Source of the DNA: a virus
Taxonomy: Duplodnaviria; Heunggongvirae; Uroviricota; Caudoviricetes
Reading direction: 5' to 3' (one strand)
DNA length: 64,000 bases
IMG/VR virus record: IMGVR_UViG_3300042514_001345
How positions within the stretch are numbered: the stretch's first letter is position 1; each line of letters starts with the position of its first letter. Positions 62,526 to 63,920 of the stretch are shown piece by piece. Below the pieces are notes generated by a model, which saw only the letters and a program-made list of their open reading frames with translations, was not told the DNA's origin and did no database searches. Made by a program: the position numbers and the translations under genes.

Positions 62526-62556
62526 AAAAAGGGAAGTTTTTAACTTCCCTTTTTTT
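62526..62556. terminator. Bidirectional intrinsic terminator after clpP
   Basis: AAAAAGGGAAGTT / AACTTCCCTTTTT. Confidence 0.85.
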
Positions 62557-62569
62557 ATTTATTCCCTTA

Positions 62570-62577
62570 TATTTATT
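62570..62577 (+). promoter_or_regulatory. Candidate late promoter TATTTATT
   Basis: Immediately precedes the left arm of the long-range inverted repeat. Confidence 0.55.
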
Positions 62578-62579
62578 TC

Positions 62580-62594
62580 TAGACCTTGTGGTTG
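62580..62594 (+). repeat. Left arm of a long-range inverted repeat (TAGACCTTGTGGTTG)
   Basis: Pairs with 63519-63533: 11 perfect pairs plus 4 more, two of them G-U. Confidence 0.85.
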
Positions 62595-62673
62595 AAGTCG
62601 AAGTGTCCCAGAGGCATTTGAGTTGGAATTGATACCAACGAATTCGGGTTCAAATACAAAAAAATATAAGGAA

Positions 62674-63513
62674 ATGAACAGAAGAATTTCAGTTAACACA
62701 ACTGGTCTTGCTGTACCACAATCTTTCATTACTAAAGGTAAACAAAGATTAAAACAGCACATTGACACCGTATATCTTAATAACGGTGATGAGTTCGAAA
62801 TCGAACTTTTTAATCCAACACACAATAAAGTTTTAGCAAAAATTGAGATGAATGGTAATGCCGTTGGTAATGGTATTATAATTCGTCCAGGTGAACGCGT
62901 TTTCCTCGAAAGATATCTTGATGAGGCAAAGAAGTTTTTATTTGAAACATATGTTGTAAATGGTGATAATTTAGAAGTACAAGAAGCAATTGCTGATAAT
63001 GGTGATGTGGTTATTAAGTTCTATAACGAAACGCCTCCACCGACATATTATAGCGGTAATTCAGGCACGTTAACGATATCTAACCCAGGTTGGATAAACA
63101 ACACGGGGACACCATTTACCTACACTACACATAATACTTTAGGTATGAATACATTTAATCCTACTAGTATTACAACAACGGGAACAAATGCGGTTTATAC
63201 TTCCAATTCATCTTTAACAAGTGGAACGTTTAGTACCTCAAATACATTCTTAAACAACCCCGATAAGGTTAAAAAATCTAAAAGACAGGTTGAAACAGGT
63301 AGAGTTGAAAAGGGTTCCAATTCTAATCAATCCTTTACATACGATAGTACATCTTTCAATAGTTGGGCGTCTAACACAAATTGGTGGAAAATAAAACCCA
63401 AATCAACTCAATTGGTAACAATGGATGATTTGGCTACATATTGCACTGAATGTGGCAGTAGAAGGAAAAAAGACACATATAAGTTCTGCCCACAATGTGG
63501 CACAAAATACTAA
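62674..63513 (+). CDS. Conserved hypothetical beta-domain protein with an S/T/N-rich linker and C-terminal zinc ribbon; start revised to 62674
   Basis: EFEIELFNP..VLAKIEMNG..GERVFLERY..NGDVVIKFYNE, VETGRVEKG, CTECG..CPQCG. Confidence 0.8.
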   Translation: MNRRISVNTTGLAVPQSFITKGKQRLKQHIDTVYLNNGDEFEIELFNPTHNKVLAKIEMNGNAVGNGIIIRPGERVFLERYLDEAKKFLFETYVVNGDNLEVQEAIADNGDVVIKFYNETPPPTYYSGNSGTLTISNPGWINNTGTPFTYTTHNTLGMNTFNPTSITTTGTNAVYTSNSSLTSGTFSTSNTFLNNPDKVKKSKRQVETGRVEKGSNSNQSFTYDSTSFNSWASNTNWWKIKPKSTQLVTMDDLATYCTECGSRRKKDTYKFCPQCGTKY

Positions 63514-63518
63514 TAAAC

Positions 63519-63533
63519 TAATCACAAGGTCTA
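63519..63533 (+). repeat. Right arm of the long-range inverted repeat (TAATCACAAGGTCTA)
   Basis: Starts 6 nt after the stop codon, just before the terminator. Confidence 0.85.
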
Positions 63534-63538
63534 ACTCT

Positions 63539-63561
63539 GAGGTCGCTTTTGCGACCTCTTT
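63539..63561 (+). terminator. Intrinsic terminator
   Basis: GAGGTCGC-TTTT-GCGACCTC-TTT. Confidence 0.75.
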
Positions 63562-63584: not shown

Positions 63585-63920
63585 ATGAAGATTGATAAAA
63601 CAAACATCCTATTAGTTTTGATTGCTTGTTTGGCTGGCTATACCATATTTCAAAATCAAGGTATAAAAACTGACGTTGCGGGTTATAACGCTAAAATTGA
63701 ATCCTTACAAAAGGAAATTGATTCGGTTTATATTGCAAACAAAGAAATAGACAATCAAATCGAAAAAGTTGATAATCACATTGTTAATGTTGATAAAGAT
63801 ATCGACAACGTGACAAAAAACATAACTATTATTAAAAACAACACAGATGAAAAAGTTAATTCTATTACTACTATTGGTAATGTTGAGCTTGAGCAGTTAT
63901 TCGCAAACAGATACAACTAA
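63585..63920 (+). CDS. Membrane-anchored coiled-coil protein (i-spanin/Rz-like candidate); start revised to 63585
   Basis: N-terminal hydrophobic ILLVLIACLAGYTIF followed by a long heptad region. Confidence 0.6.
   Translation: MKIDKTNILLVLIACLAGYTIFQNQGIKTDVAGYNAKIESLQKEIDSVYIANKEIDNQIEKVDNHIVNVDKDIDNVTKNITIIKNNTDEKVNSITTIGNVELEQLFANRYN

Follow-up and report, generated by a model that had tools for sequence, protein, structure and literature searches.

The window analysed here is a stretch of 64,000 nucleotides (nt) from a virus of the class Caudoviricetes (IMG/VR record IMGVR_UViG_3300042514_001345), and the subject of this study is a transcription unit on its plus strand (62570-63561) that encodes a protein of 279 amino acids (aa). 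The mRNA of this unit is predicted to begin with a segment that is complementary to a segment of its own 3' untranslated region (UTR), and the resulting helix, referred to as helix A, would close the transcript around the complete gene. A preliminary description, made from the window by itself, had pointed out the two complementary arms. Here the locus is compared with its homologues in other phages. From upstream to downstream, the following features were annotated, with lengths in base pairs (bp) and nt and with ORF standing for open reading frame.

62526..62554, plus strand: upstream terminator, a 13-bp stem then a T-tract, which ends a clpP-like gene
62568..62576, plus strand: late-type promoter box TATATTTAT, similar to the Bacteroidota -7 element (TAnnTTTA)
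62580..62594, plus strand: 5' arm of helix A, TAGACCTTGTGGTTG, the predicted extreme 5' end of the mRNA
62593..62652, plus strand: three-way junction of the leader with helices B, C and D, predicted by pair counting in the alignment
62653..62673, plus strand: A-rich, predicted single-stranded initiation region that holds the nearly invariant UAUAAGG (62665-62671)
62674..63513, plus strand: ORF of 279 aa, with an immunoglobulin (Ig)-like beta-sandwich, an S/T/N-rich linker and a CxxC...CxxC zinc ribbon
63519..63533, plus strand: 3' arm of helix A, TAATCACAAGGTCTA, in the 3' UTR, separated by 5 nt each from the stop codon and from the terminator stem
63539..63561, plus strand: intrinsic terminator of the unit, an 8-bp GC-rich stem (63539-63558) plus a T-tract

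The two arms form 15 pairs, 11 of which make up a perfect core, together with two further Watson-Crick pairs and two G-U pairs. The coordinates of the arms, the 11-nt perfect core and the two G-opposite-T deviations, which become G-U in plus-strand RNA, were all recovered as first described, and so were the ORF and the terminator stem with its T-tract. When the 5' and 3' flanks of the 44 genes of the window were compared, the longest perfect match (11 nt) was the one found here, and the runner-up measured 9 nt. Exact copies of the core occur in the 64 kilobases (kb) at these two sites only, and the combination of promoter and arm is found once. Three other copies of the core with one mismatch (5301, 37326 and 50225) are intragenic and not near promoters, and the idea of the arm as a general motif was rejected. 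An unrelated perfect inverted repeat of 13 nt sits within the same 2.5 kb. Judged from the window by itself the inverted repeat is suggestive, with chance remaining possible; a chance origin of the arms was ruled out by the comparative data across homologous loci.

The likely position of the 5' end follows from the promoter box. The sequence ATATTTAT at 62569-62576 fits the pattern [ACT]TATTTAT[AT], and the late motif noticed earlier proved to be real, as the pattern recurs 4-14 nt ahead of eight other start codons in the window (given as examples: 4472, 6492, 27285, 29626, 36944, 46548, 49430 and 51268). Over the window (1-64000) there are 17 copies of the box on the plus strand and 6 on the minus strand. 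Because the same box lies 4-14 nt before these start codons, transcripts probably start within a few nt of it, and many late mRNAs of this phage would be leaderless or nearly so. Among the box-bearing genes of the window, a leader of ~97 nt after the box is unique to the gene studied here. The distance from the end of the promoter box to the core of the arm is 7-9 nt in 55 of 63 homologous loci, which would place the left arm at the very 5' end, and the start site is predicted to lie at or beside this arm. In this genome the terminator at 62526-62554 shields the unit from read-through; it is kept in those loci that have the clpP context.

A total of 117 homologous loci, with protein identities of 40-90% to the window, were fetched from jumbo-phage contigs. 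There were 37 close relatives in IMG/VR. A profile search yielded 457 related stretches, the best 80 of which were retrieved, and further loci came from a search with a divergent query. The source contigs are mostly phage genomes of 50-405 kb from lake and river metagenomes. Both arms were anchored on their cores for the comparison, which gave ~62 distinct arm/leader combinations. Nearly all of these combinations retain a helix of 13-15 bp that joins the 3' UTR to the predicted 5' end, and both arms are kept across the 37 close and the 80 more distant loci, with an exception noted at locus L077. Homologues thus carry complementary flanks, a point on which the preliminary description had made its proposal depend. 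In the flank alignments, the parts conserved outside the ORF are the promoter-like box, the left arm with the leader, and the right arm. The terminator stems of the homologues are unrelated in sequence, and the neighbour genes vary on both sides.

The right-arm core CAAGG is located 10-21 nt past the stop codon, ahead of the terminator, in 62 of 63 loci. In one homologue (L036:1796-2788) the protein has a 60-residue C-terminal extension beyond the zinc ribbon and the 3' arm is found directly past the new stop codon, so that the arm tracks the displaced stop. In L077 (1501-1890) an early stop truncates the ORF at ~130 codons, the leader is intact, and the right arm was not found past the early stop; this may reflect a frameshift, a pseudogene or an assembly error.

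Within helix A, a core of 7 bp (ACCUUGU/ACAAGGU) is invariant, with one G-U and one C-A as the departures among the 62 combinations; in L126 and L083 a core C is changed to U, which gives a G-U pair. Other positions exchange whole base pairs. Among the combinations, 31 have G-C and 27 have A-U at position -2, and at position +6 the counts are 41 for G-C and 16 for U-A. Position -3 has A-U (36) or U-A (12), and three forms occur at position -4 (G-C 16, U-A 12, A-U 9). For the covariation test, the combinations were collapsed to 39 distinct arm pairs and the right-arm letters were shuffled among sequences. The number of cells changed on both sides was 52, compared with 18.8 ± 4.3 in shuffles, and none of 1000 shuffles reached this value. 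The cells that deviate from Watson-Crick pairing were 28 G-U versus 9 A-C.

The helix is also predicted by folding. In the 982-nt transcript (62580-63561), the 15-bp terminal helix is present in both the minimum-energy and the centroid structure, and the fold has a z-score of -5.05 relative to shuffles. Likewise, the minimum-energy and centroid folds of L088 and L091, whose proteins are 42-47% identical to that of the window, contain the helix. In co-folds of leader and 3' UTR from 62 loci, the 5' arm paired with the 3' UTR with a mean probability of 0.97.

Covariation, excess of G-U, fixed places of the arms and full-length folds together lend strong support to the earlier proposal of a pairing of the arms at the RNA level that encloses the entire unit. 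Pairing at the level of RNA is indicated by the asymmetry between G-U and A-C, which would not be expected of DNA-level sites, by the right arm, which always lies within the transcript between stop codon and terminator, and by the left arm, which leads directly into structured RNA. From the comparison of sequences, helix A is very probably a selected 5'-3' helix that acts as RNA. Complementary segments are found in the 5' and the 3' UTR of one transcript, upstream of the terminator, and the compensatory changes place their pairing under selection. In these respects the element matches the 5'/3'-UTR interaction elements of the hbs type, which are a mechanistic class and not a homology family; an effect on ribonuclease cleavage, half-life or translation, which is also characteristic of that class, is predicted here.

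The leader measures ~95 nt overall, and ~80 nt of it remain beyond the left arm. It had been called structured, and alignment of 61 distinct leaders followed by RNAalifold and pair counting showed that this structure is a covarying three-way junction. In helix B (62593-62602 with 62643-62652) 8 of 9 pairs change on both sides, in hairpin C (62603-62607 with 62613-62617) all 5 pairs covary, and hairpin D (62622-62626 with 62635-62639) has an almost invariant GUUGG/CCAAC stem. The junction thus comprises 19 pairs, 14 of which are changed on both sides, and the three helices are 96.9-100% paired. When a helix between the 5' arm and the initiation region (see below) is included, 97.9% of the cells of the resulting 26-pair structure are paired compared with 86.5% in shuffles (0/500), and 164 cells are doubly changed compared with 45 (0/500 as high). 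Sliding the register of the leader structure lowers pairing to 35-44%. Helices A and B share two nt (62593-62594), so they are adjacent and could stack. Past the junction, the nearly invariant UAAGG is located 5-11 nt before the AUG within an A-rich single strand.

A search of the 64 kb against Rfam 15 gave no match at gathering scores, in the leader or the 3' UTR; in a permissive scan the best sub-threshold row reached 30 bits against a cut-off of 56 bits and lay on the opposite strand. No tRNA or tmRNA was found, and GGTTCAAAT, which is reminiscent of a T-loop, belongs to helix B as its 3' strand. With a covariance model built on the leader, a single copy was detected in each of the sequences scanned: the window, G001 (a 91-kb contig of locus L001) and three genomes of 311-405 kb that are 93-100% complete. 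A coding function of the leader was rejected: a TTG-initiated extension, which would give a protein of 296 aa, is excluded by indels that shift the upstream frame between homologues. A different leader fold of 15 bp (62616-62630 with 62641-62655) was also rejected, being 75.8% paired versus 74.6% in shuffles with 2 pairs changed on both sides versus 2.2 expected, and its outer 9 pairs stay pairable. Within the same region (62616-62655), most homologues preserve a complementarity, without compensatory changes, between AUUUGAGUU, the junction strand before hairpin D, and GGUUCAAAU, the 3' strand of helix B; these two segments may form a 9-bp alternative to helix B. Judged by the alignment, the leader is a bona fide structured RNA that had not been catalogued before.

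When RNAalifold was applied to the leaders without the 3' UTR, a second partner of the 5' arm was predicted: CCUUGUG (62584-62590) pairs with UAUAAGG (62665-62671) in a helix of 7 bp. In this helix 96.5% of the cells are paired versus 39-53% in slid registers. The sole informative pair is G-U in 29, U-A in 15 and G-C in 6 of the 61 sequences and broken in 11. The predicted occupancy in the leader alone is 0.6-0.9 in a clade designated 'GUU' and ~0.12 in the clade of the window, where it is low because UUGUG prefers to extend helix B, and it drops to zero when the 3' UTR is present. Motifs resembling a Shine-Dalgarno (SD) sequence are found upstream of 2 of the 44 ORFs in the window that are at least 80 aa long, and the gene studied here, with its nearly invariant UAAGG, is an exception in this SD-poor window. 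The host is probably of the Bacteroidota type, as suggested by the SD-less genes and by one homologue in a metagenome-assembled genome labelled Bacteroidota. Ribosomes of Bacteroidia do not read SD sequences (PMC7797042, PMC6847099), and therefore the conserved AAGG before this AUG needs another explanation. A 5' arm that fits both AAGG partners would explain the invariant core of the helix.

A competition between AGGTC of the right arm and the terminator for its GACCT had also been suggested. This is possible in 7 of the 60 distinct 3' flanks compared, which come from a single clade with one shared terminator, and the suggestion is not supported. In that clade (window 63525-63558, L038, L050-L054 and L065) the 5' strand of the terminator, GAGGTC, repeats AAGGTC of the right arm, and this repeat would offer two possible partners to the 5' arm or to the 3' strand of the terminator.

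In the proposed mechanism, helix A is a cis-acting element of a late, monocistronic mRNA, in which the first 13-15 nt would pair with a 3'-UTR segment ~940 nt away, situated between the stop codon and the terminator hairpin. Helix A would stack directly on the three-way junction of the leader, and the mature transcript would have no free 5' end, its 5' and 3' ends lying side by side. The helix would hide the 5' terminus from 5'-end-dependent decay, that is from removal of pyrophosphate and subsequent entry of RNase E/G, J or Y, and it would hold the pyrimidine-rich 5' arm off the initiation region that contains AAGG. Long life and efficient translation would be reserved for complete, uncut transcripts. 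The footprint of a terminating ribosome is known, and a core located at least 10 nt from the stop codon lies outside it. The helix would thus survive the terminating ribosome, which fits a structure that persists on translated mRNA. Protection of the end and stabilisation of the transcript may well be the main role of helix A, with a probability that is put at or just short of even.

Several points weigh against this role. A simple 5' hairpin would protect equally well, and a partner 940 nt away is not explained by protection. The invariant 7-bp core is left unexplained as well; it suggests an added sequence-specific constraint, which a nuclease, a protein or the initiation region could impose. 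The 5'-end decay route is an assumption about the RNases of a host that is probably of the Bacteroidota type. In addition, RNA-library data of relatives were available as Logan contigs from four metatranscriptome libraries, which span the leader plus a 5' portion of the ORF; these contigs may be carried-over DNA or read-through and give no transcript ends. In two of the libraries they extend 38-52 nt upstream of the left arm, and if they are RNA, some starts would lie further upstream and the arm would be internal. No back-joining junction was seen in the metatranscriptome contigs of relatives, which may be DNA carry-over.

The invariant core is accounted for if the 5' arm has to fit both AAGG partners, as it would in a translation switch gated by the 3' end. 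In such a switch the 5' arm would block UAUAAGG until the longer 3' arm captures it by strand displacement; while the mRNA is being made, or after loss of its 3' end, the initiation region would be occluded, and the full-length mRNA alone would be translated. In a variant, the closed loop would recycle terminating ribosomes. Exactly this 7-bp helix was predicted by RNAalifold from the leader by itself, its pairing of 96.5% is specific for the register, one pair occurs in three forms, and pairing is predicted with a probability of 0.6-0.9 in the 'GUU' clade. UAAGG hardly varies, even though SD-like motifs precede just 2 of 44 genes, and since ribosomes of Bacteroidia ignore the SD (PMC7797042), AAGG would be kept for another reason. 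Moreover, in B. subtilis, anti-SD-like sequences distant from the ribosome binding site repress via long-range pairing (PMC12697547). However, the helix counts just 7 bp including two G-U pairs, its predicted occupancy is ~0.12 in the clade of the window, its single covarying pair follows clades and is broken in 11 of 61 sequences, and AAGG could be a genuine SD used by the phage. The switch is therefore regarded as possible but doubtful. A full-length translation checkpoint in a host with SD-blind ribosomes, in which the 5' anti-AAGG arm silences the initiation region until the 3'-UTR decoy, which has the longer match, is made and the closed loop lets terminating subunits re-initiate in cis, is judged rather improbable. 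The same low credence is given to the arrangement that it supposes, in which the closed loop would put the stop codon (~12-15 nt from the helix) beside the A-rich start region.

The remaining explanations assign helix A to processing, to protein binding or to the DNA. Since helices A and B abut and share 62593-62594, coaxial stacking of the 13-15 bp of helix A and the 9-10 bp of helix B would give a near-continuous duplex of ~24 bp, with a bulge. By cutting this duplex, RNase III or a phage nuclease could free the mRNA from longer transcripts or bring it to its mature form. Many homologues have no upstream terminator, so that read-through from neighbours is plausible, contigs from RNA libraries reach upstream of the arm, and the 5'-3' UTR duplex of icaR is a substrate of RNase III (PMC3868564). 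However, the constant spacing of 7-9 nt between box and core speaks for the arm as the primary 5' end, and cutting would strip the terminator hairpin that protects the 3' end. RNase III normally needs roughly 20 bp, and helix A alone falls below this length. A processing stem is thus considered unlikely. It is harder still to credit that the closed helix, the junction or both are a platform bound by a protein, possibly the zinc-ribbon product itself, for autoregulation or localisation; such a protein would recognise the invariant core and hairpin D. Indeed, the ACCUUGU/ACAAGGU core and hairpin D (UUGAGUUGG...CCAAC) are invariant beyond the needs of pairing, and the product carries a basic zinc ribbon, but its Ig-like sandwich is a generic fold without an informative match, and its zinc-ribbon matches are below the Pfam cut-offs. 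For a function of the arms as DNA, either as paired operators (looping), as sites of recombination or inversion, or as terminal inverted repeats of a mobile cassette, it can be said that the left arm adjoins the promoter box, that neighbour genes vary between genomes and that covariation by itself would also suit two sites co-evolving with one DNA-binding protein. Inversion sites had been offered as an alternative in the preliminary description, but promoter, leader, ORF, arm and terminator have one and the same orientation throughout the alignable loci, and a second orientation was not observed in the assemblies, which show the majority form only. One copy of leader and gene was found in the window, G001 and each of the three genomes of 311-405 kb, which is not expected of a transposon or a miniature inverted-repeat transposable element, and the conserved promoter box lies outside the left arm, beyond the segment bounded by the repeats, and would not move with it. 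Furthermore, the right arm precedes the terminator in every locus examined and moves with the stop codon, which a DNA site does not need, and the G-U excess is strand-specific. A function at the level of DNA is accordingly considered very improbable.

The preliminary description had been unable to assign a function to the zinc-ribbon protein, and this did not change, as no informative relative was found in Pfam, PHROGs, the PDB or the ESM Atlas. The AlphaFold model of the 279-aa product shows an Ig-like beta-sandwich at residues 12-120 that is completed by strands at 205-242, with a pLDDT (predicted local distance difference test) of 61 overall and 70-86 within the sandwich. The S/T/N-rich linker is variable and disordered, and the CxxC...CxxC zinc ribbon is C-terminal. 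Pfam returned zinc-ribbon families only, all under the curated cut-offs, PHROG gave no match, and Foldseek against the PDB gave nothing at E <= 0.001. With VIA-align, generic Ig, MSP and RhoGDI-like sandwiches were retrieved at Z <= 6.7. The ESM Atlas contained viral hypothetical clusters only, and all 2378 homologues of the protein are unnamed. From the late promoter and the build of sandwich plus linker, it may be guessed that the protein is virion-associated. The product of the downstream gene (63585-63920) has 111 aa, with a membrane segment at its N-terminus and a coiled coil, and it gave weak hits (E 0.005-0.006) to PHROG families of holins and Rz-like spanins. This gene holds its position only in loci that also have clpP upstream.

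Among known systems, the hbs mRNA of B. subtilis has a 14-bp 5'/3'-UTR interaction that modulates cleavage by RNase Y in the leader (PMC5737220). In both cases a long-range helix of about 14 bp links the UTRs of a single mRNA that is monocistronic and highly structured, and the helix lies ahead of the terminator. The role proposed here parallels that in hbs, where the helix is tied to ribonuclease access and couples stability to translation. There is no sequence relation between the two; the overlap in hbs is with an internal RNase Y site, helix A instead engages the predicted extreme 5' end, and the mRNA studied here belongs to a phage of a probably SD-less host and covaries over ~62 distinct loci. 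In the icaR mRNA of S. aureus, an anti-SD sequence in the 3' UTR (UCCCCUG) blocks the SD (PMC3868564). The icaR duplex, which governs what becomes of its mRNA, is likewise an intramolecular pairing of 5' and 3' UTR that involves an SD-type motif, but the polarity is reversed, as here the SD-like AAGG is carried by the 3' UTR and the anti-SD-like sequence by the 5' end, and pairing would free the initiation region.

As in hok/sok and aapA/IsoA, the pairing of 5' and 3' ends in the full-length mRNA would set the translational state. The hok mRNA is locked in an untranslated state by its fold-back until trimming of the 3' end; the polarity of the switch proposed here would be the opposite, since in the co-folds of the mRNA studied here the closed form leaves the initiation region open. 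Kinship with hok and aapA, to which the arms had first been likened, is not supported, because the product is a 279-aa protein with beta-sandwich and zinc ribbon and not a small hydrophobic toxin (under ~60 aa). A scan of the minus strand for an antisense RNA, made on the sequence, gave two weak sigma-70-like matches (9-10/12), no more than in shuffles, and all minus-strand Rfam rows at the locus were below gathering scores. The stems of rRNA precursors (16S, 23S) and the RNase III sites of T7 also pair the flanks of a whole functional RNA; unlike these, helix A has only 13-15 bp and a promoter box immediately ahead of it, and this box before a short helix makes a primary end likelier than a processed one. 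It is concluded that the nearest known systems share the principle, and not the sequence, the polarity or the setting.

To our knowledge, intramolecular pairing between 5' and 3' UTR is accepted for few bacterial mRNAs, such as hbs and icaR, and we know of no comparable support by covariation for these two. Here, an architecture with closed ends is kept with compensatory changes across a large, diverse family of freshwater phages with genomes of 300-400 kb. The leader and helix A are a candidate for a new RNA motif in Rfam-type curation. If the full-length translation checkpoint were true, it would be an analogue in a bacterial virus of the closed-loop mRNA of eukaryotes, made of RNA only. The family would offer a natural system, rich in sequences, for what the closure of an mRNA does for its stability, its translation competence and the recycling of ribosomes.

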